DNA of 63,999 nucleotides, filler included, from Aduncisulcus paluster (Eukaryota), in the NCBI GenBank assembly GCA_024181965.1. It is 11 parts of 11 records of this genome, joined end to end, with 100 filler letters (N's around TTAATTAATTAA, not from the genome) between each part and the next. Parts side by side here need not be neighbours in the genome. Positions count along the whole stretch, not along the records: positions 22,182 to 27,180 come from BQXS01011504.1; 10 more parts are not named here. One strand, given 5' to 3'. A program made the translations under genes and the position numbers. Of the stretch, positions 19,701 to 38,600 are shown piece by piece. The notes under the pieces were generated by a model. That model saw only the letters and a list, made by a program, of their open reading frames with translations, was not told the DNA's origin and did no database searches. How positions within the stretch are numbered: the first letter of the stretch is position 1; each line of letters opens with the position of its first letter.

Positions 19701-21390
19701 CATGGTCCAGTATCTTCTCAATTATCTATTTTTGGAACAGTCAATCATGGTATGCATGGAAACACTGCCAAGCAAAGCAAACGATATGAAGTGCATGGAG
19801 GAAAGAAGTTGAATTCAGCACATATGAGTTATCATTCAAGAAGTGAGTACAAACAAGCCAAAAGGCAAAAAAGAAGAGAGAAATCTACCTTGAAAACTTT
19901 GGAAGAAAGAAGAGGAGCCATATTGTTACCAAGATTGGCCTTATGCGACACTGTAGCTGTAGCCGAAGAAGAAGAGAGAGAAAAACAAAAGAGAAGAGAG
20001 GAAGAGGCAAGAAGAGGAAGCGTTGTTGATGTTTTATCAACTTGGGAAAGAAATAGAAGAGAATCAGTATTATCACCTCGTTTTGGCCTTGGAAGTGCGC
20101 GTGGCGGCCTTGGAAGTGCGCGTGGTGGCCTTGGAAGTGCGCGCAATTCATCTTCAGCGAGGGAGAAAGATGATCGAGGAGAAAGAAGAAGAAGAGGAGG
20201 AGGAGCTATTAGTGTGGACATGGACGATGGGAAAAGAGGAGATGAAGAGTATTCTTCCTCTTCTAAGAATGATGATGATGATTTGGAGCTAATTCAAAAC
20301 AAGAAACCTGCACGTAATGTTTGTATTTTTGTCGATTCTGTGTCATTTATGTTGAGTCTTATTCAAAATAGACAAGATGATCTGATTCGGAGAGAAAGAG
20401 TCAATCTGGCACTGAAAGCCCGTGAGAAGTCCAAATCTAATTTTAGAATTGAGGAGGAAAGCGGTTCAACCNNNNNNNNNNNNNNNNNNNNCCTTATGCG
20501 ACACTGTAGCTGTAGCCGAAGAAGAAGAGAGAGAAAAACAAAAGAGAAGAGAGGAAGAGGCAAGAAGAGGAAGCGTTGTTGATGTTTTATCAACTTGGGA
20601 AAGAAATAGAAGAGAATCAGTATTATCACCTCGTTTTGGCCTTGGAAGTGCGCGTGGCGGCCTTGGAAGTGCGCGTGGTGGCCTTGGAAGTGCGCGCAAT
20701 TCATCTTCAGCGAGGGAGAAAGATGATCGAGGAGAAAGAAGAAGAAGAAGAGGAGGAGGAGCTATTAGTGTGGACATGGACGATGGGAAAAGAGGAGATG
20801 AAGAGTATTCTTCCTCTTCTAAGAATGATGATGATTTGGAGCTAATTCAAAACAAGAAACCTGCACGTAATGTTTGTATTTTTGTCGATTCTGTGTCATT
20901 TATGTTGAGTCTTATTCAAAATAGACAAGATGATCTGATTCGGAGAGAAAGAGTCAATCTGGCACTGAAAGCCCGTGAGAAGTCCAAATCTAATTTTAGA
21001 ATTGAGGAGGAAAGCGGTTCAACCTTATTGTTTAACCAAATTGATGTATTTAAATGTGAAGCTATTTTATTACGATCAAGGCATCTAATTTTGGAAGCTC
21101 GGATGAAACGATTGAAATCTGTGATTGACATTTTTGACATGTTACGTAAAAATATGACTTCTTACCAAGTTTTGGAAAGAGATTTGAGTCGTTCTCCTTC
21201 TCCTCAACTAGAAAATATTGATTTGCCTCCTAATTTGGTGAAATTACCATTAAAACGACACAAACCACCACCTCCGTCACTGATTTTTGCCACAACTCAA
21301 GCTTACGAAGGATATATTCAAATGAAATCAAAGTGGACGAAAACGATGATGGATTCATTTGGAAGTACTCTCGATGAAAGTATAGATTGA
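16711..21390 (+). CDS. Large low-complexity (poly-S, poly-E, K/R-rich) protein, 5' partial, split by a gap with duplicated flanks
   Basis: ORF of about 1,250 codons before the gap continues in the 20422-21390 ORF after the duplicated block. Contains a 21-nt tandem repeat encoding (GLGSARG)x3. Confidence 0.7.
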
Positions 21391-22181: not shown

Positions 22182-22262
22182 AATACAAACAAAATCCAGT
22201 TTATTCTAAGTCCATATCGAAATTAATAACACCAACAACTAAAACCTACCAGTACAGCAATA

Positions 22263-24413
22263 ATGTCTTTTTCTAAACCAACAACAAAGCCTTTCAGCAA
22301 AGCATGTCTTGAACAATTGAGAGTTTCTATTAAAATGACCACCTTTGAATTGATCCCACTTTATGAAAAATCTCAATCACGTCTTCAGGCCATCTTTGAC
22401 GAATACACGACACCTTCTGCAATTACATCCAATCGAGATCTCTTCGCTCTTTGTTTCGAATGTTTATCCCTGTTCGTGAAGCATAAAGTTACGAAAGAAG
22501 AAGATGGAGAAGAAGATATTGAGGTCATCCTCGATAAATCTTCCATCAAGAAGATCATTGACTCTTTCTTGCCTCAAATGATCAAAGTTGAATCTGTTCT
22601 GAGGATGAATGGAGAAATGACAAGAAGAAGAAGAAGAAGAAGAAGAAAGTGGAACAAAAGAAGCTGGCGTGAGCTCTATCACAATGTTATTGTTTAGAAT
22701 TCTAAATGTCTCTCTTGACAAAGTTGAATCCATTCGAAGCAGAATATTTCCCCAATTCTATTCTCTTCTCTCCAAAATATTAACTTTGGGTGAATACAAA
22801 AAACTTGAGAATTCTTTTGTTAATGATATCCTCGAAATATGTCGAAAAATTTCCTATTCTCATCGTAACTCCACTAAAGATTCCCTTTTATCCATTCTTA
22901 TCCGTCATATTTTACCGTGGATGAGGAGGTATCCCGACAAGAAGTTCTTTTTGCATTGGACAAACATTTTGAAGAATATCACTCTTGATGAAGATAACAA
23001 ACGCCCTCATGAAGGTCGTTCCTCACAACTCTGGTTTGTCTTCCATCCTGTCTTGGATGTGATTAAAGATACAGATTCCAAGGGTGTAACATTTGATGAT
23101 GAAGCTATCGTTCGTTGTTTATTATTCTTTGCTCATCTGAGTTGCATTCCTTCCCAAGCTATTGAAATTCATAAATGCATCAAAGATGATCTTCTTGATA
23201 GTTGGTTTGAGATGGTAAAGAAGAATAAGGAAGAAAAAGATGATAGCGCCGGTGTTAAATGCTGGTCCAAACTTGTTTCCATGCTATCAGAAATCCCCTC
23301 AATTGTTCCCCAACTTTCACCTAAATTTGATGATGAGATGTATTGGTGCATGAAAAATGGAGGATGGAGAAATTATTATTCAAGGTATCTTGGTAATTGT
23401 TTTGCTTCTCTCAAGAAATGGAAGGAATTAATTGATTCCATTAAGAAATGCTCTGATTCTGAGTCAACTGCTGAACTCTTCGATGAACATCGAGATGAGA
23501 TCCTTTCTGTATTCCTTGCATATCAATCAAAGAGTGAGATTGAAGAACATAAGAAGGAGATTATTCTTTGCTTTCTATGTTTAGAATTGTTTGTTATACA
23601 TGTTATTTCTGGAACTAATATCTATCTCCCTAATTCTGATTTGAATGATCTCATTGACATTTTCATTGATCATTTATCAAGGGTTGAGCAGGTATTGGAA
23701 GGAGATGTTGATGAAGAGTATTGTAGGATTTGTGCTGGTTATACTTTCAAAGTTAAAGATAAATGGGATTCCTTCTTACCCAAAATATCTCCCACTTTTA
23801 CTTCCAAACTTGAAGATAAATGGGATTCCTTCTTACCCAAAATATCTCCCAGTTTCCAACGTATTCTTGAGAGAGGAAGTGAGAAAAAGTTGGGAGGAGA
23901 TGTTGCTCTACAATTATTAATGACTCTCAAAAATATCTCTATTTCACCAACTTCTTCCACTCGGTATTCTATTCTCACCCTCATCAAACCATATATCAAA
24001 GATTGGTTGAGGATATACAATGATTGCAAGTGTTATGGAGAATGGATGATTATTTTATCAAAAATCACCCTCTCAAGTGATGATGAAACACCCGAAAAAT
24101 CCCTCTGTTCTGAAGCTTGGCCTCTTTTCCACCCTATTCTTGATGTTGTTAAGAAAGAGTTTGTTGGGAATAAGATTGTTGGGAATGGTCATGAAGAAGT
24201 TCTACACTTCTTCTCCAACTTATGTTGTGATCCATCGGCTGCTCAGGAAATCTATGATAATGTTGAAGGTCTTCTTGATGGGTGGTTTGCTGTTTTTAAG
24301 GATAAAGATCATATGTTGGGAATTCATAATTGGGCCAATCTTGTTTCCATGTTTTCAACTGTTTCGTCTCTTGTTCCTCTGATATCTCCAAAATATGATG
24401 AGGACATGGAGTG
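22263..24413 (+). pseudogene. Helical-repeat family member (ARM/HEAT-like), frameshifted near 22620 and truncated by a retrotransposon
   Basis: Highly similar to the ORF at 40300-42763. The frame shifts just before the GAA tract (the paralog reads EEEEGGTGEAGVNSITM). The ORF stops at KYDEDME where the paralogs continue (M[EK]WC). Confidence 0.8.
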
Positions 24414-24454
24414 CCCATGAGCACTCCATCTGTTCAGAGTACCGTTATGCATAT
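24407..24454. repeat. 48-bp direct repeat, terminal copy (B2 plus overlap with host)
   Basis: TGGAGTGCCCATGAGCACTCCATCTGTTCAGAGTACCGTTATGCATAT is identical to 24879-24926. Confidence 0.95.
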
Positions 24455-24878
24455 ATAACATTTACTAAGCCGCGATCTTCCTTCATCCTGTTCTTCCGGT
24501 TCTTCTTTTGCCACGTCTTGGTTGTCTGTGCCCGGCTGCGAGTTTGTTGCGACGTCGGGCTGCTTCTCCGATTCTTCGGATTCTTCTTCTGCTTGAGAGT
24601 CTTCTTCAGCTTCATCTTCCTTTCTTGCATTTCTTATGCGTCTTGGTGGCATGAATTTGTGCTCGCGTTTCTTGAAATGTAAACAAAGAGCACTCTCCTT
24701 CCTGTTTTCTGTGCCACCTTTCCACTCCGATCGGAGTGGATACCCCCTTGCGTTTCTCTGGTCCTCGACCTGTTTCACGGTATGTAAAATTCTTTCTGTT
24801 GTTATTAAATTTTCTTTCTACTAATTTTGTTGTTTTCGTTATTATGCCCCCTTCTTTCTACGGTATTCTGAAATACTC

Positions 24879-24926
24879 TGGAGTGCCCATGAGCACTCCA
24901 TCTGTTCAGAGTACCGTTATGCATAT
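24879..24926. repeat. 48-bp direct repeat, internal copy (B1/A junction) abutting the YR stop codon
   Basis: Identical to 24407-24454. The YR stop lies at 24926-24928. Confidence 0.95.
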
Positions 24927-27169
24927 TATTTTCGAGGCGAGCATAATGTGGGCCAGCCCATAGCCTCACGGACTGATCTATCTATGTATGCCATGTATCC
25001 TTCTACTGTTGACCAGCCCCCCAATGACATTATGACTTCTTGTCTCACTCCTGAGCATAGCAGGTGGATCACCGCCCCCCGTCGGAGAGCGTGTGATCCC
25101 GTTTGTATCCCAATAACTCTCTGTGACTGGAGAGTGAATGACTGTTTCAATCTCTTTGATGGATCTTTGTTCTTCTCGGGGTGTATATCACCGAACAGGA
25201 AAGCCTGACTATGTAATTGGACTACTTCGTGCTTTTGAAGAAGTTTTCTTAGTAGATCGAAAGCCCCCACCGGACCGTCCTTGTTTATCCGTACCATAAT
25301 TCCTGCTTTAGTTTTGTTAGATGGGCAGAATAGGAGTATATAATCTCTAAAACATCTTATCCCTCCTAGTCTGATGGATGCTACAGATCCAGCCCGGGAA
25401 ACCGTCTCGAACGTGACTGCTGCCCATGTGGCCAGGGCTAACATTCCCCTTTCCATAACGACTCTAACGAATTCTCGCACCTCGTCCACTGTCATTGCAT
25501 CATGACGGTATCTTTCGGCCGGTGTTGAGGTGGCTCTTCTCCCCAGTAGGGACATAAACCTCCGACGAAGTGACGAGGGGGGTTTCCCCGTTAGAACCTC
25601 CATGTAATTCCTGAACTTTTCCCACATTGATGTGGTTTTCTGGTTTTCTCCCACCCAGAGTCTTGCTTGATCTGCGAGGAACTGTATCCAGGGCATGTCT
25701 CCTCTGGATTTCTCTACCAGTCGTCTCATTCTTCTTCTGCGATCATTTGTGGCGACTGGTCTTCCCACGTCGTCGGCCTCGTGGGCAGCCAGCCTACTCT
25801 TAATCGTGCCGTCCTCTTGTGTAGTTGACACCATCTTCTTAAGTATATCGGTGTCTCCTTCGGTCGCACGTCCAATGAGTGACTGCAGCTCTCCCCAATC
25901 CATTTCACCAAATGCGGCGTTAGAGGCGACGCCACCACTGCTATACCAGAGGTAGCTGTGAGAGGAGCGACTATACTGTCTGTTTCCTTCTCTAATTCCT
26001 CGAGGCGGGCCAATGTTTCTAATTCTAGCCCCGGCTTTGTATGCATTAATAGTCTTCCACGGGTTAGCGTCACCTGGGCCAGTCTTTCTCTTCCATCTTC
26101 TGGGGTCATTGCCTTTGTCAGCGGTCCCCAGCTGGCCATGATGTGTTGGGATGTTTCTGTTAATTCTTGCTTCTTTTCCCTTGAGGCGGCGTCCGCCCCC
26201 ACGTTGTCTGTTCCTGGGATCCAGATAGGAAAGAATTGTACACCCTGTTTTTCTGCTAATTTCCAGGTTTGTGTGGCTATTTCTTGCATGTTTCTTGAGG
26301 AAGAGCCCCGAATGAGAGCCGATCTTGCTGCGACATTGTCTGTGCCCCAGACCCAAAGTCCTGGTGCGAGAAGAGTCTGACCGACCACCTGTTGGAGAGC
26401 TAATAGTTCTGCACTTGTAATATGACTGGTCTCTTGTCTTCTTATCCGGATCGTCCTCTTTGGCCTTCCACGTTCTAATATCACTGCTCCCAATCCTGTG
26501 TCGGATGCATCTGTGAGGATGGTCCCTCTTGCCACTCTGGGTGGCCATTGAGCGATTGGATGCTCCACTCTTCGACACCAAAACTCTAATTGCATACGGG
26601 CGTCCTGCGAGACATCCTGTCTGCCTTGTCTGTTCCGGTGTAAGTGCGAGAGTTCCCTTAGCAGTGCCTTTGTGAAAACGGCTGCAAACGGAAAAATCCG
26701 CCGCAGAAAGAGCAGGTGGCCGACCATCTGCTTTATGGCCAGCTTTGTCCATCTCTTTTCCTTGCTTCTTCTTTCGAGCAATTCCTGGAGCTTGACCTGT
26801 TTTCTTTCTGATATGGAAATTGTCCACTCCTTTGTGTCTAGGACATATCCGAGAAATTCCAGGTGTCTTGTCGGTCCAAGAGTCTTTTCGTGCGAGATTT
26901 GTGCACCTAATCTTGCCGCTAGGTCCATGAAAACCTTCACTTCTTTGCTTGCATCCTCTTGTGTTCTCGACATTAAGAGGAAGTCGTCTATATAAACGAC
27001 CATAACCAACCCCCTTTTTCGCGCTAGTTTTGTAATTTCTGATGTGATTTTCTGGAATATGTAAGGAGACCAGCTGGCCCCAAAGGGGAGAACGTTTGTT
27101 ATATAGAATGTGTCTTCTGTTTCTACTCCTAAGAGTCTGCGGTCCCTTGGGTGGATAAGAACTTGCCAA
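24926..27169 (-). CDS. Tyrosine recombinase ORF of the retrotransposon
   Basis: Catalytic set R (VSRAGSV), K (SNKTK), HxxR (SHALRRG), W (LGGWST) and Y (YMAYI) lies in the C-terminal part. The long N-terminal frame overlaps the RT ORF, as is typical for DIRS. Confidence 0.93.
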   Translation of the reverse strand: MASSYPPKGPQTLRSRNRRHILYNKRSPLWGQLVSLHIPENHIRNYKTSAKKGVGYGRLYRRLPLNVENTRGCKQRSEGFHGPSGKIRCTNLARKDSWTDKTPGISRICPRHKGVDNFHIRKKTGQAPGIARKKKQGKEMDKAGHKADGRPPALSAADFSVCSRFHKGTAKGTLALTPEQTRQTGCLAGRPYAIRVLVSKSGASNRSMATQSGKRDHPHRCIRHRIGSSDIRTWKAKEDDPDKKTRDQSYYKCRTISSPTGGRSDSSRTRTLGLGHRQCRSKIGSHSGLFLKKHARNSHTNLEISRKTGCTILSYLDPRNRQRGGGRRLKGKEARINRNIPTHHGQLGTADKGNDPRRWKRKTGPGDANPWKTINAYKAGARIRNIGPPRGIREGNRQYSRSSHSYLWYSSGGVASNAAFGEMDWGELQSLIGRATEGDTDILKKMVSTTQEDGTIKSRLAAHEADDVGRPVATNDRRRRMRRLVEKSRGDMPWIQFLADQARLWVGENQKTTSMWEKFRNYMEVLTGKPPSSLRRRFMSLLGRRATSTPAERYRHDAMTVDEVREFVRVVMERGMLALATWAAVTFETVSRAGSVASIRLGGIRCFRDYILLFCPSNKTKAGIMVRINKDGPVGAFDLLRKLLQKHEVVQLHSQAFLFGDIHPEKNKDPSKRLKQSFTLQSQRVIGIQTGSHALRRGAVIHLLCSGVRQEVIMSLGGWSTVEGYMAYIDRSVREAMGWPTLCSPRK

Positions 27170-27179
27170 AACCCCTTTC
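25726..27179 (-). CDS. Reverse transcriptase / RNase H (DIRS-type), 5' partial
   Basis: The frame is open to the contig end: KGFWQV...LPFGASWSPYIFQK...VYIDDFLL...FLGY. RNase H motifs TDAS, SAEL, TDN and WIPGTDNVGADAASR follow. Confidence 0.95.
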
Positions 27180-27180
27180 T

Positions 27181-27280: not shown

Positions 27281-30200
27281 TTTTCGAAGATTTTGGCATT
27301 TCAACACCCAAGAATGACCACAAGAACCGGTATAACCAACATTATAATTACAAGGAATACATTTCCTTGAACGTTGATTTGAAGGAAAACATTTGTAGCA
27401 TTCAGCTGGACAATTCTGCTTACAAACCTCACATGTGTGACCACAGGGTTTTATGCATGTAATCATGGAATGTGGAAAGTTATGGCATCGTAAAACACAT
27501 GAATGCCCACAATGCATTCTTTCACCACATTTATGGTCACATGGAGACAATATCTTATCGAAATTATCCAACAAATCACCTCCCTTCCGAACATCAACAG
27601 CCTTATCATGTTTCATGCATCCAACGCTCAAGGGGAAAGTATCATTCCTGACACCACCCATACCAAGAATATGGTTATAAACCCTCCACCATATGGGATT
27701 TCTCTTCCCTGGTTTCGTTCGAGATCCAAAGATTTCACTGTGACCCACAATCATCATGAACTTCTTCGCACGAGATAAGGCAACGAGAATCCTGTTTTCT
27801 CTACTCACAAATCCACAGCGATCTGTTCTTGTCAGAGAGACAAACACTGCATCGGCTTCTTCACCCTGAAAAGAATCATTGGTCACAACACGCACCTGTT
27901 TCAGTACAGAGGGGGATAGGATCTTTGCAACAACGTCTTTACAGTCTTTTCCATATTTTTTCACGAAACATTTCTTTACATGATCTGCACACTTCCATAA
28001 TTCGTCCCTCATTCTCATACACTGACCTTTATACATGGAAAGGATAGCAATCTCATTCGGAGGAACACCTTGGAACAAAAGCATTAGAGCAAGACTGCAG
28101 ATTAATGTACATTCATACTGGTTTGAATGGGAACGAGAATTTCGAGAAGAACGTTGTCTTTCATTGTGCTCGAAAAAAATGACCCGATGACCCATGAATG
28201 CAGGAATGGGACCAATTCCCTTTGAATATTCAGAATCTTTCAAATATGGCGCCAAAGTGGTAGCTCTTAGCATTTCAGAGATTGGAGGAGCCATTCTCCT
28301 TTGAACTTGTAATAAACAAGTTTTATCGAAATATTTGCAATGCTGTGAAATGTATTCAAATAAAGAAATGTCAAAATTATAGAGTTCTTCAGCAGCAGCC
28401 CCACCACGAGAACGAGTCGTTTTCTTCTTGATGAACATGTTACTTGATAATTTATGTTCAACCTCAGGTCTAAGTTGATTGTGATCTCCCAACATGACAA
28501 CATGCTCGAGAGACGGCAGGAATAGAGCAATATTCTGTGCCATAGTCATCTCTCCGCTCTCTTCACAAATCAACGTTGTAGGTCGAAGTCCACGCAAAAG
28601 ATTCAGTTCTCTAGCAGCAACATTTGATGTCATAGCCAACAAAGGAGTATCTTTAAGACCATAGGCATCTCTAATGCTTCGATAAAGCTTTAAATCGTCC
28701 TGGTACTTCATACAATTCTTCAACATCCCGGGGAGATCATTTCTCACTCGTTCGTTAATATGTTCGAGACGTTTCTTGAAGAATTGAAGACGAGAAGACA
28801 AAGTTATATCCCACAAAGAACAACCATTGGAATAACACAGATCAATAAACTTGTCAAAATCTTTGATATATTTCTGTAGATCCTCCTTCATTAACTGTTG
28901 CCGATGTTCTTCTCTTTTCTCCCTCATGTCAAGCTCATAATATCTATCTTCTTCTTCCATATCATTTTCTTTAAAATCTGTACCAGATATATACTCTTCG
29001 TAAGTATCTTTTTCTCCTTTTTCTCCTTCCTCTCCTTCTTTCTTATCAATACTCAGTATTTGGGCAGTGTCAATGTCAACAAAAGCAGATTTTCTTTCTT
29101 CCTCTTCCTCCTCTTCTTTCCTTTTCTTTTCTTCCTCTTCTTTCTTTTTCTTTTCCTCTTCTTTCTTTTTCTTTTCTTCCTTTTCTTTCCTTTTCATTTC
29201 CTCTTCTTTCTTTTTCTTTTCTTCCTCTTTTTGTTTCGCTCTCTTTTTGCTTGGTTTTTCTTCCTTCTCCTCTTCTTCCTTCTCCTCTTCTTCTTTCTTC
29301 TCTTCCTCTTTCTCCTCCTCTTCTTCTTTCTTTTTCTTTTCTTCCTTTTGTTTCTTGGTTTTGACAATCACGATCTTCTTTTCTTCCTTTTTCTTTTCTA
29401 TCTTAACATCTTTCTTCTTCTTTTCCTCCTCTTCTTCTCTCTTCCTCTCTTCTTCCTCTCTCCTCTTCTCTTCTTCGGCTTCTTTTTTCTTCCTTTCGAT
29501 GATTTGAACAGCTTTGTCCAGCAGATCTTGTTTCCCAGCTAATTTAAAGATCAATAACAAATTCTTGATTTTTGTATAAGGTTCAGAATACAATTTCGTG
29601 TATTTATCTTCCAAGTTGAACATGGCAAACATATTACCGGATCGAACAATGGAACTTTCAAGAGTGTCTTCAACGATTTCAGTCAAACTCATACATACAG
29701 ATTTGATAAAGTCCAATACATGTATTTTTTCAATCCAGATGTTAAAAGCTCTATTCTCGTGTTTAGAAGACAACATGTTTAAGGGATATTGATTGAACAA
29801 AACATGACGTTCTTCTCTACCATCGGCCGCTCTAAATTTAAACTTACTCTTAATTTCATTCATTATTTGAATCAATCCTGAAATTGAAATGAAATCTCCA
29901 CTTTTTGTAGTTATTGGTAAAGTAATTAGCTGTGAGTTTATATGGTTAATGAACTCTGAAGGGAAAGTTAACCTGACTTTATGATAGAAATCTTCCAACA
30001 ACGATTCAAGTTTGTTTAATTTGTGAATAGATTTCTTGCTTGCCTTCTTCTTCTTGTTGTTGTTGTTGGTCATCACATCAAAATAAGCTTTCATGATAAC
30101 TTCATTGTTTTCCAAGAGAGGATCATTAAGAATGTGGATGGCACGAACACTCTGGAAACACGATCCCATCATCAAAGCGGCCTTTATATCGGCTGCAGTC

Positions 30201-30959
30201 TTCTGTTCAATCAATTCACCTTCCGTAAGACTGTCAAATTTGCCACGTAGATCCATTTTTAACTCACTTGATCGCCTTGAACACATCTTAATCTCATCTC
30301 GAACATTTCTTTCATGAATCACTCTTGATAATATTTTTTCATTGATAGTTCGTGGTCTTCCTCCGAACCTGATCAGGTTTGGAATATCTTCAATAACCCC
30401 TTCAAGGACTCCATCAAGAGCTTGATTTGTAAGACATACAAGAATTATGGGACCATTTGTCAATTTGTTTTTATATAACGTTCGAATTATATGACGCCCA
30501 CAAAATGATTTCCCTGTCCCTGGACCTCCTTGGATAACACTGAAAGGTTGAGTTACAGCTGTCACAATGGCACGGATCTGTGTTTCATCAGGTTGGAGAG
30601 TGTATTTATGACCATTGTAATGAATAGCATGTGGTGGATCTAATCCTAGAGCTGGATCATAGTATATTGATGGGGAATCATCACCAAGACGCTGTTCTTC
30701 AAGCTGTTGTCTTAGTTGAGCACGTGCTTCTTTTTGTCTCTTCCGTTTAGCACCACGATCTTGTTTCATTCCAGCTTTTCCTTCCAGATTCTCCTCTTCG
30801 ACAAATGCAAATTTAGCAGCGTTCTGTTCTTCATTAGATGAGGAAATTTTGAGGTCAGCAACAGATTTCTCCCATTTAGCTATATCAGCATCTATAATTT
30901 CATCTCCTTTCTTCTTTCTTTCCTCTCCATCAATATAATCCATCGAACAAGCTGAAGAA

Positions 30960-30990
<31 letters not shown>

Positions 30991-33290
30991 GATATTGTTC
31001 CACGTAAGAAGAAGAAGATGATGAAGAGGAAGATAATGACAGGAAAGAAGCAATAGAATATCTTGATGATGTTGTTGTACAAGCAGAGATATCATCATCA
31101 CTCTTATCATATAAATGGGAGATATCAAGCATCTTGGAGGAACCGTATCCTTCGACTCCCACACCACTCATGAATTGTTCCAGAGCATTACTATTACCAG
31201 TGTTTTTTTCTTTAGCTATACAAACGTGATTAGCTTCAGGAAATTTCTTCAATATTTTGATATTTCTTGTCTTTGAAAGGAAAGGGGGAGCTTCAAGTCT
31301 TTGAGAGTTTTCTCCATGACGAAGAATAACATCAGAAAAGGAGATATGGTCAGTTTCAAAACATTGGAGGGCTTCCAGAACAGGTTTTGTTGCCACCCAT
31401 AGACTATGTGTTTCGAAAATATCATATTTTCGAGTGAAATCGAATTTATCTGGTTGCAAAATCACAATATCAATCTCTCTATCATACAATAAATTCTCTC
31501 TGGTTTTTATAGGGGTACACTTTTCACCATTCTTACCAAATTGATGTCTGAAATGATGCCTAAAGGGACAATAAACAATACCAGGGAACAATTGGCTCAT
31601 TTTTTCATCTGAGGGTGTCAGAAACACGAGAGTTTGATGTGATAAGAATTCAATTCGGCTCAGATTGTCCAATGCAAGACCACGACTTAACTTTGTTTTG
31701 CCATCTCGACCATAAAATACCCGATTTCGAAGCATTGATGGCCAATTAGGTAGCTTGAATCGAATACTTCCTCCGCCTTGACCTCCTTCCCGAGGTTCTG
31801 CATTAGGGAACACAATGAGATCCCTTTCATCAAGATTACCTTGCAGAGAAGCACAAAGTCCTTCTTCGAGAGGGATAAGGAAATCTTTACGACATAAAGT
31901 AAACAAAGTATGTAAGAGTTGTTTCTCAGAGGTGAATCCTGGGTTTCCTGAGCTTGTGCGAATAGGCAAAGGGCATAGACGATCGTATGTTTGTTTCTCG
32001 ACGGGAGTGAAGCTTGACAAGGAACGGATATTCCATTTGGGCTTTACAGGGTTAGAATCAGCCAATACAACTTGTCCAATGGGAGTCTCACCCTGTCTTT
32101 GTTGAGAAGAAGGCCTTATACCTGCCTGATCAGGTTGAACAACAGCTCCATGAAGAGCAGGTATTACCACGGCACCTGGTGCAGCAGGTTGTACAACAGG
32201 GGCAATGGCAGGTATCACAGGATTCGGAATACCAACCCCCAATCTTCTGCCTCTTTCTTCCTGGATCTGTAACTGTTGAAGTTCATCAACAATACTGTCG
32301 ATAAGAGCATCTTCACCACCGCTAAGAACCTTTGATATCTCATAGATAGTCGGGTATACGGGAAGATTAACGATTGAATGATTAATTCCCTTCTTCTTCT
32401 TCTCCTCCTCCTCTTCCAATTCCTCGTTTTTCACAAACTTCTGAGAATTTTTCTTCAAGCAATTTCCATATTTTTTTATAAGTTGGAGATTCACAAATAT
32501 ATTTAGGATCGTGTTCACCTACAATATGTTTTTTAAGACCAGAGTAAGACATTGCATCCTTTTGTTGGCAGAATAAACGCACAGAAATGACTCCCGGAGT
32601 GATAATTAGGAGAGAAATTAAAGAACTGATGAAATTTGTGATATATTTAACTCCTTCATAATCCGAAAGGTGTTTGATCTTTGTAAACAATTCGTGGGCG
32701 TTAAAAAACCGATAGAATAGTTCTTTTGTGACGAGACTCACGAGTTTATCTTTTCCGTTCATATCTAAATCTTGGGCAATTTCTTCGGAGAAGGGATAAA
32801 TCTTTGAAAATATCGATAGGAGATGAGAAAACATTTCCTCGGGTTTGTTTGAATGATCGGAAAAAGAACCAGAATCGATTAAACCAAGGAGACCATGTGG
32901 ACTTTTCAGGCATTGGCAAAAATATTTTGGAATGTTTTTAACTCCACTATTGAGAATTGAAAGTCCAAATAAGGGATGCTGACGTTGTTTTGCTTCATAT
33001 CCAGCAAGAGTCGTTGATATATCTTTAAGAATCTGCTGGCAATTCATCGATCTTTTTCTTCTCTGACTCCAAGAACCTTCAGCGCCATGGGAGTATTTCC
33101 GATAAGTTCCTTTGTCTCTTTCCTGTCCTCTTCCTCTTCCTCTTCCTCTTCCTCTTCCTCGACCTCTTCCTTGGCCTCTTCCACGACCTCGACCTCTTCC
33201 ACGACCTCGACCTCTTTCAGAAGTTCCATTTCCTTTGTAGTATTTTTTAGAGCGTGAATTAGACGCTCCACTGCCATGTTTTCTTTCCAT
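27281..33290 (-). CDS. ZNFX1: ZNFX1-like UPF1/SF1 RNA helicase with NF-X1 zinc fingers; one frameshift near 32400; 3' partial
   Basis: Walker A QGGPGTGKS, CLTNQALD, Walker B EESGE (ZNFX1-type EEAAE), GDHNQLRP, QRRM, DSFQGEE and NRILVALSRAK, followed by CGHSC...CH and CGHTC...C fingers. The N-terminus carries an RG repeat. Confidence 0.85.
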
Positions 33291-35613: not shown

Positions 35614-38600
35614 ATGACTGTACCTGACAAAACAAAATTTTTGTTAAAAGGAATGAACGCTGATAATTGGCAGGACTTTAAAGATGGTTATGAAGAATAT
35701 TCTTTACAAGGAGGAAAACTTCAAATGGTAAAATTAATTCCAAGAACTCATTTATTGACCCTTATGACCAAAGTTAAAATGGCCCGTTTAACGTCGAAGA
35801 ATATTGAAGACTTCTATAAATAAGTTGAAAAATCTTTTCAAACAACTAATTTGAGAGAGCTGTATCACCGATTGGAACTCCTAAAGATGAGGACGCCAAT
35901 TACGCAAAAAAAACTACGAAGCTTATGTGGCAGTATACCTAAAAGATTTAAATGGGGTGAAAATACCTTTGGAAAAGATAAAAAATCAATAACCGACTAC
36001 TTCATGACGGGATTACCATCTTGTTTAAAACGAGACATACAGGCTGTCTTGGATCACAAATCCTTACAAGAGCATCCTGAGCTCTCAGAGTTTTCAGAGG
36101 ATTTTGCTTATTTCTCCGATCTAATAGACCAATCCAAATCAAAAGCCAAAGAAAAGGAATCAAGAGAAGACGACGAGATATGTTCCTCGGATGATTCGGA
36201 GGTACGTGCTCTAGAAGANNNNNNNNNNNNNNNNNNNNTAAATAAGTTGAAAAATCTTTTCAAACAACTAATTTGAGAGAGCTGTCACACCGATTGGAAC
36301 TCCTAAAGATGAGGACGCCAATTACGCAAAAAAAACTACGAAGCTTATGTGGCAGTATACCTAAAAGATTTAAATGGGGTGAAAATACCTTTGGAAAAGA
36401 TAAAAAATCAATAACCGACTACTTCATGACGGGATTACCATCTTGTTTAAAACGAGACATACAGGCTGTCTTGGATCACAAATCCTTACAAGAGCATCCT
36501 GAGCTCTCAGAGTTTTCAGAGGATTTTGCTTATTTCTCCGATCTAATAGACCAATCCAAATCAAAAGCCAAAGAAAAGGAATCAAGAGAAGACGACGAGA
36601 TATGTTCCTCGGATGATTCGGAGGTACGTGCTCTAGAAGATCTCGATAAGAAACTGAGAGTCTTGGAAAGGAGAAGAAATATCCAGACCCCAAAGGGGGA
36701 ACCGGACGGCAAATTGATCCAAGAGACCGCTTTAACGGAAGAGGGAAAAGAGTTGGAGGAAGAGCTATTTCTCGAGGTATCCCCAGGACTGAAGGTTTTG
36801 TTGTCACATGTGGAAGCTGGTAGAGAAGTTCTGGCAGAACTTCCAGAGGTGGAGATGAAACACAGACAATATGGAAGAAGAGACCAAAGCTTCAACAAAG
36901 ACAAGACTGGGAGGATTAAATGTGAGTTCTGTAAGAGATATGGTCACACAGAAGAAAATGTTATAAAAAAGACCCAACAAAACGCCCAAAGAAGGACAGA
37001 GTCATGAAAATCCAAGACTCACCAGAATTCCGCAAGAAAAAGATAAGGATTAATGGAGTAGAATGTTCCGCGCTATTGGACACAGGAGCAGGAAAAAACT
37101 ACATCAACCAAGTGATATTCGAAAAACTGAAAGCTCAAGGAGTATGTATAAAGGAAGAACCCATTATGATAAAGGTGGCTGACAGAAGGGAAATTGAATG
37201 CTGACAACTGGTCAGAGCAATGACAGAGTTTAAACTGAAAGAATCATCAGTTAAGACCCTGAAACTTGAAATCAATTACCATGTTCTGCCTACTCTGCCT
37301 GATGTCGTTATTGGGAATGAATCGATCGATGCGCTCGACCTGCAAAGACTTGAAGAATTGAAAAGCACGGAGGAAGATCCAGAAGAAACCGTTGAACAAC
37401 CCTTGGACACCGAATTGGAATCCATCATACGAAAACACCAAGCTGTATTTTGTGAAATCAATGAAAAGCCATCTTTGATGGAACCCATGAAAATAATCAT
37501 GAAATCCAAGTACCAAGGTAAAAGCAAGGTAAGACGCATGAGCAAGGAAAAAGAAGACTATCTCCGGAAATTTATCAAGCAACTCGAGGACAAAAAGGTG
37601 GTTGAGGAAATCCAATTTAAGGAGAATGCGTCTCCTGTCTTCGTGGTTCCCAAGTAAGGACCAGAAAAGTACCGATTAGTAATGACTACAGTGGCTTAAA
37701 CCAACAACTTCCCTCTACCCAATATCGAAGCAGTCTTGGAAGGAATGAAAGGAGTTTCTCATTTGGGTACACTAGATTTAACCAATGGATTCTATCAACA
37801 AGAACTGGATGAAAGCAGAAGAAAGCACACTGCATTCATAACTCCATGGGCCGTATATCAATTTAAAAGAGTTCCTATGGGACTTTGTAACAGGCCAGGA
37901 GCATTCCAGAGAGAGATGACGAAGATCCTTAAGAAAGGAATCGGTTCAAAATGTTTCGTATTCATCGATGACATTGCAGTATTCGGGAAAACGCAGGTGG
38001 AATACTATCGAAACATGGATTGGGTATTGGAAAGTTTAAAGAAGAACAACATTTAACTCAAGCGGTCGAAATGTGTTTTTAACAAACAACAAGTGAGATT
38101 CTTGGGTAGGCTCATCTCAAGCAAAGGAATTAAAATTGATCCCGAAAAGTACTCAGCTCTAAGGAATCTACGTAACCCCACAACAACAAAGGAAGTGAGG
38201 AGCTTGTTTGGCCTGATGAGTTACAGTCGGAAGTATATTGATCACTTTGCTGAAAAAACAGAATTTCTTACGCAGAGAATGAGCTTGAAAAGACAACCGG
38301 AGTGGAAGAAGTCAGAAGAAACAAAGCTAAGACAATTACTAGATGAACTCCAATCCGCAGAAGTCTTGGCGTTCTATCAGCCGGGAAAAAAATTGATAGT
38401 ACAAACAGATGCATCGAAAATCGGCATCGGAGCAATGCTCAAACAAGAGCAAGAAGGAGAGGAAAGAGTAATTCAATACTTCTGTTTGGGATTAACGAAT
38501 TATAATAACTTATAATTGTTAATTATGTATTAATATTAAGCTGTTAGAAGTAATTTAAGGAATGGAGTTAACAGTATTGGGTGACGAGGTGTCAACCAAC

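Follow-up and report, generated by a model that had tools for sequence, protein, structure and literature searches.

Retrotransposons that code for a tyrosine recombinase (YR) and bear split direct repeats in the order A1...B1-A2-B2 are known from PAT, Ngaro, and VIPER (PMC8547959, PMC6681497, PMC4157794). The reading frames of Ngaro elements usually do not overlap (PMC3266345). As of 2020, the recognition of element and target by recombinases of the DIRS order had not been tested experimentally (PMC7192593). Recombination of a folded single strand was, as of 2016, described for integrons and CTXphi only (PMC4792948). Integron attC sites are recognized in single-stranded, folded form and are resolved through replication (PMC4792948), and in the attP(+) site of CTXphi, two pairs of inverted arms fold back and one strand is exchanged, with no homology at the second cut (PMC3442271).

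The window analyzed here is a stretch of 63,999 nucleotides from Aduncisulcus paluster, in which contigs of a 29.6-Mb eukaryotic assembly are joined by N spacers. Positions 22182 to 27180 of the window correspond to contig C11504 and contain the following features:

22621 to 24406, plus strand: host gene of a large repeat-protein family, split by the insertion (open reading frame; paralogs)
24407 to 24454, minus strand: B2, the 48-bp 3' terminal repeat, which retains the inner hairpin and one outer arm
24455 to 24481, minus strand: 27-nt spacer between A2 and B2, missing from A1 and present in the solo unit
24482 to 24878, minus strand: A2 repeat, 397 bp, identical to A1
24879 to 24926, minus strand: B1 repeat, immediately after the YR stop codon
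24926 to 27180, minus strand: open frame with a tyrosine recombinase domain at its end (PF00589, E 5.5e-8), overlapping pol
25726 to 27180, minus strand: pol, with reverse transcriptase (RT; PF00078, E 8.2e-19; incomplete at the contig end), RNase H, and, C-terminally, a conserved domain of 140 aa

These features show that 24407-24926 is the B1-A2-B2 3' end of a recently inserted YR retrotransposon with open frames. The two copies of B form an exact direct repeat (48/48 bases), as the sequence-only reading had noted, and A1 and A2 are identical at 397/397 bases, which indicates that the insertion is young. That reading had also proposed a YR retrotransposon with split direct repeats, and both the gag-pol-YR frames and the A1...B1-A2-B2 order were found. 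Its expectation that the 5' end begins with the A sequence was borne out on contig C11377, where A1 is followed by a gag with a CCHC finger and the start of RT; the limits it gave for A were too wide, since A corresponds to 24482-24878 and 24455-24481 is the spacer absent from A1. When compared with the genome, the 3' end of this family (family 1) matched three places, and a solo A+B unit is located on C12564. In each of two runs of one sample, 926 bases link the contig end in the window to A on a single contig, and the depth of the contigs carrying A is about 3 times that of the interior (run X1). The full copy measures 397 + 926 + 2774 = 4097 bp, and family 1 is present in the genome as one full copy and one solo. 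The sequence of a circle junction equals B1/A2, and contigs therefore cannot reveal circles.

The A repeat of families 1 and 3 extends well into gag (window 24482-24652; L047; L116). With the gag ATG at 24652, A2 of family 1 thus bears a short truncated gag frame, and gag begins with MPPRR in all three families. Several copies end in the order YR-B-host and lack A2 and B2 (L049 on C13242, 1842; L014 on C8023; L008 on C11726, 2553-2636), for which a deletion between B1 and B2 and an assembly collapse are the alternative explanations; the flank of L014 is that of the full family 2 copy. Elsewhere in the window, exact or near-exact duplications surround 20-N gaps (19939-21024 and 35817-36538) and are probably assembly artefacts. 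A long open frame on the minus strand (27281-32470) shows, by eye, the helicase-like motifs GGPGTGKS, EESGE, and QGEE and perhaps encodes a ZNFX1/Upf1-like protein.

The element encodes gag, RT/RNase H, and a tyrosine recombinase, and no DDE integrase is found among its frames. The YR catalytic residues R77, H170, R173, W196, and Y205 are invariant (alignment A1), and RNase H was recognized by alignment. Its repeats are direct, hence the inverted terminal repeats and internal complementary region of DIRS1-like elements are absent, whereas the split direct repeats characteristic of PAT-like, Ngaro, and VIPER elements are present, with a full copy of family 2 on one contig. As in the DIRS order, there is no target-site duplication at three empty sites. 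The element belongs to the DIRS order and has split direct repeats. It has in common with PAT-like and Ngaro elements the A1-gag-pol-YR-B1-A2-B2 layout and the lack of target duplication, and solo A+B units occur as in the Cafeteria Ngaros (PMC8547959) and SIRE/VIPER (PMC6681497). It differs in its very divergent proteins, in the 27-nt A2-B2 spacer, and in that no methyltransferase was recognized. The pol and YR frames overlap by more than 1.4 kb, a PAT-like trait that the element combines with another, the CCHC finger in Gag. The 140-aa domain after RNase H (window 25756-26175, minus strand) is conserved in three families with 35-46% identity. It gave no Pfam Dam match, no alignment to the MT-bearing P0001 in this region, and nothing significant in Foldseek, VIA, and the ESM Atlas; its AlphaFold models (pLDDT 53.5 and 51.9) were of low confidence and had non-significant matches only, several of them to SAM methyltransferases. 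The overlapping frames, the zinc finger, and this conserved domain may point to PAT rather than Ngaro, with a possibly decayed methyltransferase. RT is 24-28% identical to outside relatives and, in a tree of 16 rows built without named reference elements, forms its own branch with the families of this genome. Scans with alignment A1 retrieved no close outside relative from metagenome or viral contigs, nor did P0016 from viral contigs; the best outside YR matches were 23-40% identical.

The junction between B1 and A2 folds into a 58-nt two-stem hairpin (24860-24917), composed as follows:

24860 to 24872, no strand: outer stem, A-side arm
24873 to 24878, no strand: 6-nt internal-loop strand, equal to the start of A on the element strand; putative overlap or spacer
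24878 to 24880, minus strand: crossover, between 24878 and 24879 or inside the two shared bases 24879-24880 (junction table)
24879 to 24886, no strand: inner stem arm adjoining the crossover, to which host targets are similar; proposed arm of the cutting recombinase subunit
24887 to 24892, no strand: terminal loop of 6 nt, exchanged for another in family 3 and not where the crossover occurs
24893 to 24900, no strand: inner stem, fold-back arm
24901 to 24904, no strand: 4-nt internal-loop strand
24905 to 24917, no strand: outer stem, B-side arm

The outer stem has 13 bp (12 Watson-Crick pairs and one T.G on the plus strand) and is followed by the internal loop with its strands of 6 and 4 nt, the perfect 8-bp inner stem, and the 6-nt loop. 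As DNA, the hairpin has a folding energy of -16.4 kcal/mol, with z scores of -6.2 (plus strand) and -6.8 (minus strand), and 0/200 shuffles folded as well; the corresponding RNA values are -6.5 and -6.4. Among the 540 75-nt windows across the portion of the element within the window, those at the junction fold best. The sequence-only reading had described the overlap between the 48-bp repeat and this hairpin, and its fold is found exactly as written. The B2 terminal copy indeed holds only the inner palindrome and the right outer arm.

The empty sites establish that the B/A junction is the attachment site of the element, where element and host were exchanged, as had been anticipated from its palindromic structure. 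The host gene is broken at 24406 and resumes beside A1 on C11377, and its paralogs join both host flanks without a gap in 28/31 pairings, which derive from the 19 loci with both flanks among 29 paralog loci (out of at least 42 matches), with some loci overlapping and the pairings not all independent. The empty allele of the family 1 solo was located on C1. At both family 1 sites, the only bases shared between element and host are the two at 24879-24880. The exchange at the empty sites is clean and reciprocal, with no target duplication, and the number of bases shared at the crossover is 0-2 in families 1 and 2, as compared with the 3 described for DIRS1-like elements. For a tyrosine recombinase, insertion with at most 3 shared bases is unusual. 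The repeat-protein family of the host gene is large and tandemly repeated, with at least 42 DNA matches and no clear Pfam domain (window 22621-24406, L065-L093). Its Met-Glu-Trp codons often fit the target motif of the element, and the family may be an insertion hot spot.

The crossover borders the 6-nt loop strand and sits at the inner stem's outer foot. Each family of this genome has a single crossover position (8/8 B ends, 5/5 A starts). On the element strand, the targets of families 1 and 3 read CCAnTnCA^T (3 sites); they resemble the inner arm on one side and differ from the element past the cut, except in family 3b, where 4 further bases are shared. The 3 target sites agree at 4/6 further positions (p ~3e-4, for a comparison window picked after looking). 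A pairing of the first target base with the fold-back strand was also considered; it fits families 1 and 2, fails in family 3, and was rejected. These positions bear on the loxP- or dif-like core put forward in the sequence-only reading, in which the 8-bp inner arms flank a 6-bp spacer where the strands are exchanged. Perfect 8-bp arms and an asymmetric 6-nt spacer do exist, but in 5/5 B ends of families 1 and 3 the crossover is at the left inner arm's outer edge and never in the 6-nt loop, the whole palindrome goes with B in all of these ends, and the loop is replaced in family 3. Exchange within this core is very improbable, and that part of the reading is abandoned.

A junction hairpin that is cut at the matching stem foot also occurs in three other families or subfamilies in this genome. 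Family 2 (C12441) has an RT 46% identical to that of family 1 and is complete on one contig; it has an empty allele on C11961, shares 0 bases at its crossover, and has a solo (2b) that is 76% identical. Family 3, with a YR 78% identical, is represented by three B ends and one whole solo (3b), which shares 6 bases at both ends; an empty allele of the 3b site was not found. L119 was considered as the A end of family 3a and excluded for poor pairing. In families 1, 2a, 2b, and 3b, respectively, with the 2b and 3b junctions inferred from solo units, the junction window ranks 1/48, 1/32, 2/30, and 1/45 by z score as sense RNA, 1, 4, 1, and 2 as sense DNA, and 1, 1, 1, and 5 as antisense DNA. With first or second ranks on sense RNA in all four A+B units, the hairpin is conserved among related elements, as the sequence-only reading would require. 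Family 3 retains the inner arms with an entirely different terminal loop. In family 2a, the two-stem fold forms as sense RNA, and the best DNA fold differs. For a further YR family (L015, L022, L053-L056) and for C11988, the ends were not found. At L015 (C11846, 416-1396), about 330 bases separate the end of this further family's YR from a tRNA-Asp(GTC) gene that lies on the other strand, and at L022 a tRNA-like stretch, seen by eye and not called by ARAGORN, lies near an RT fragment.

The outer arms are unrelated in sequence among families 1, 2a, 2b, and 3b, and the outer stem of 2b gains pairs through two changes. Tyrosine recombination commonly involves accessory sites, and all four arms might be binding sites in duplex DNA, a core pair and an inverted accessory pair that serve a higher-order synapse or set direction, with folding as a by-product of symmetry; each arm does have two inverted copies in duplex DNA. 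Yet the outer arms have no common sequence between families and are nevertheless complementary, which argues that pairing is selected rather than a protein motif, and changes of the G.T type are tolerated. We consider this explanation unlikely.

Because no close outside relative was available in metagenome or viral contigs, the generality of the junction structure was assessed in a distant YR family. Scans of metagenome contigs with this family gave 80 loci, and RT was present in 13 of the 16 checked. From their layout and motifs, we read these elements as probable animal Ngaro-type elements. Twelve junctions could be placed from repeats or sister copies, the evidence being 3 flanking bases for L135, homology to L176 for L181, and A starts only for L161, L146, and L186. 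L163 and L152, whose ends lie at contig edges, were left out of the 12, and an arm ending at the cut was absent in both at the guessed positions. The metagenome junctions too are spanned by a two-stem hairpin, but its closed end lies on the A side, the last part of B being the outer stem's 5' arm. A two-stem fold with the outer arm ending at the cut outscores all nearby positions in 9/12 junctions and is equalled by at most 1/100 shuffles in 10/12; weaker anchored scores were obtained for L176, L135, and L181 (2, 5, and 18 of 103, respectively). In the outer stem, 85.7% of 84 cells are paired, with 10 double changes and 0/500 shuffles as good, statistics that are inflated by the relatedness of the sequences and by our choice of structure. 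Several of these mutually related junctions have modest folding z scores as sense DNA (+0.5 to -4.0). Their inner hairpin lies in A and is likewise uncut, except for a cut 2 nt from its foot in L161, which again speaks against exchange in a loxP-like spacer.

The two opposite topologies have a common geometry: two unlike stems enclose an internal loop, and the sense strand is cut at the 5' edge of that loop. The loop is 6x4 in family 1, L161, and L146, 5x4 in L133, and variable elsewhere. A single geometry rule for both topologies, fixed together with the registers after seeing the data, applies to 8/16 junctions as compared with 38/2605 other positions and 60/3200 shuffles; a stricter rule matches 4/16 junctions. 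In L155 (the same as L161), B2 is longer and A1 shorter by the same 24 bases (L161 3496 and 7913) than in the sisters L182 and L205, and this second cut falls on the opposite strand of the same folded loop, with a stagger of 6-8 nt. The strand bias of the non-Watson-Crick positions is weak (8 G.T versus 2 A.C among 24, in related sequences), and the wobble in the outer stem of family 1 favors the antisense strand.

In tyrosine recombination, the enzyme is bound to the arm 5' of its cut, and a 5'-OH is released into a 6- to 8-nt overlap. On the sense strand of both topologies, a stem precedes the cut (5') and a loop strand follows it (3'), in agreement with this chemistry. Two-strand exchange over a mismatched overlap of 6-8 nt should give two classes of crossover, and the finding of one class supports a folded strand. 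The single class is consistent with the exchange of one strand and replicative resolution. The sequence-only reading had left the choice between two tiers of binding arms and a folded single-strand substrate; of these, the folded strand fits the junction data best. Our preferred reading, held tentatively and at slightly less than even probability, is that the recombinase has as its substrate the sense strand in folded form, or else the corresponding arm of a cruciform, with the junction hairpin as the predicted site. Reverse transcription would rebuild one B/A junction in a free DNA copy, as expected from the published DIRS/PAT model, and the recombinase would use the element (sense) strand in its folded-back state. 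The two binding arms would then be the inner and outer stems, and the spacer would be the 6x4-nt internal loop. The subunit on the inner stem would cut at the border between stem and loop, one strand would be exchanged with a host site that resembles only the inner arm (CCAnTnCA^T), and replication or repair would complete the insertion, as for CTXphi attP(+) and integron attC. Such an exchange would account for the 0-2 shared bases and the absence of target duplication.

DIRS-1 cDNA is single-stranded and can be integrated (PMC7192593), but the same source reports the strand to be antisense. This is the main difficulty for the preferred reading, since the geometry of the folded site requires a cruciform or the sense strand. 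In duplex DNA, the 6-nt spacer likewise lies between these two arms, and a double-stranded site is compatible with the data. In the main alternative, a strong one though somewhat less likely than the preferred reading, the junction recombines as a double-stranded circle (inner arm, 6-nt spacer, and outer arm), and the fold-back arms serve the RNA or reverse transcription at B1/A2, in priming, pausing, template switching, or packaging. The folds are equal or better on sense RNA, where alone family 2a forms two stems, the published model has a double-stranded circle (PMC7192593, PMC3266345), and a 3' hairpin may prime DIRS-1 (Poulter and Goodwin, as cited in PMC7192593). Taken alone, this alternative leaves unexplained why the cut falls at the stem/loop border in two opposite hairpin topologies, why each family has one crossover class despite the lack of spacer homology, and how the shifted 24-nt copy arose (L155/L161). 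With slightly lower probability than for the element itself, the folded-strand reading may extend to YR retrotransposons with split direct repeats in general, from the protist to animal Ngaro-type elements, which would integrate via a folded sense strand with two stems and an internal loop as the attachment site.

No publication was found that, by its title or abstract opening, links the crossover in these elements with a fold-back site; junction hairpins may already be mentioned in the founding papers by Goodwin, Poulter, and Butler. The word "hairpin" does not occur in the available text of PMC6681497, PMC8547959, PMC3266345, PMC9210276, and PMC13465315, and it occurs once each in that of PMC7192593 (a possible priming hairpin) and PMC2632668 (a reference title). 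The kind of element is known, its hairpin is a real feature, and the geometry of the junction makes an open mechanistic question simply testable, because the mapped junctions supply a 58-nt substrate, a predicted cut position, and a target motif. If the general reading is true, integration of a folded sense strand would account for the 0-3-base homology and the missing target duplication in these elements, and the hairpin rule would aid in locating their true ends.

Compared with known recombination sites, the junction resembles loxP, FRT, and dif in its inverted arms around 6 nt, but the crossover lies outside the palindrome, and element and target have no 6-8-bp overlap. In the computed structures, with exceptions, the crossover is bordered by an unpaired loop between fold-back stems, as in folded sites. 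The likeness to the CTXphi attP(+) site, recombined by XerC/D in Vibrio cholerae, includes unlike arm pairs in inverted order, an unpaired central loop, little overlap homology, and one exchange point. CTXphi uses two host recombinases and dif, whereas the element has one YR of its own and its target motif is loose; that the strand folds is proven for CTXphi, and we infer it for the element. With integron attC x attI recombination, the element has in common a conserved structure with variable sequence and the cut of one strand beside a stem, and replicative resolution would fit. Unlike attC, its junctions showed no conserved extrahelical bases, and it is a eukaryotic retroelement. If the preferred reading is true, folded single-strand recombination also operates in eukaryotic nuclei, as a counterpart of attC and CTXphi.
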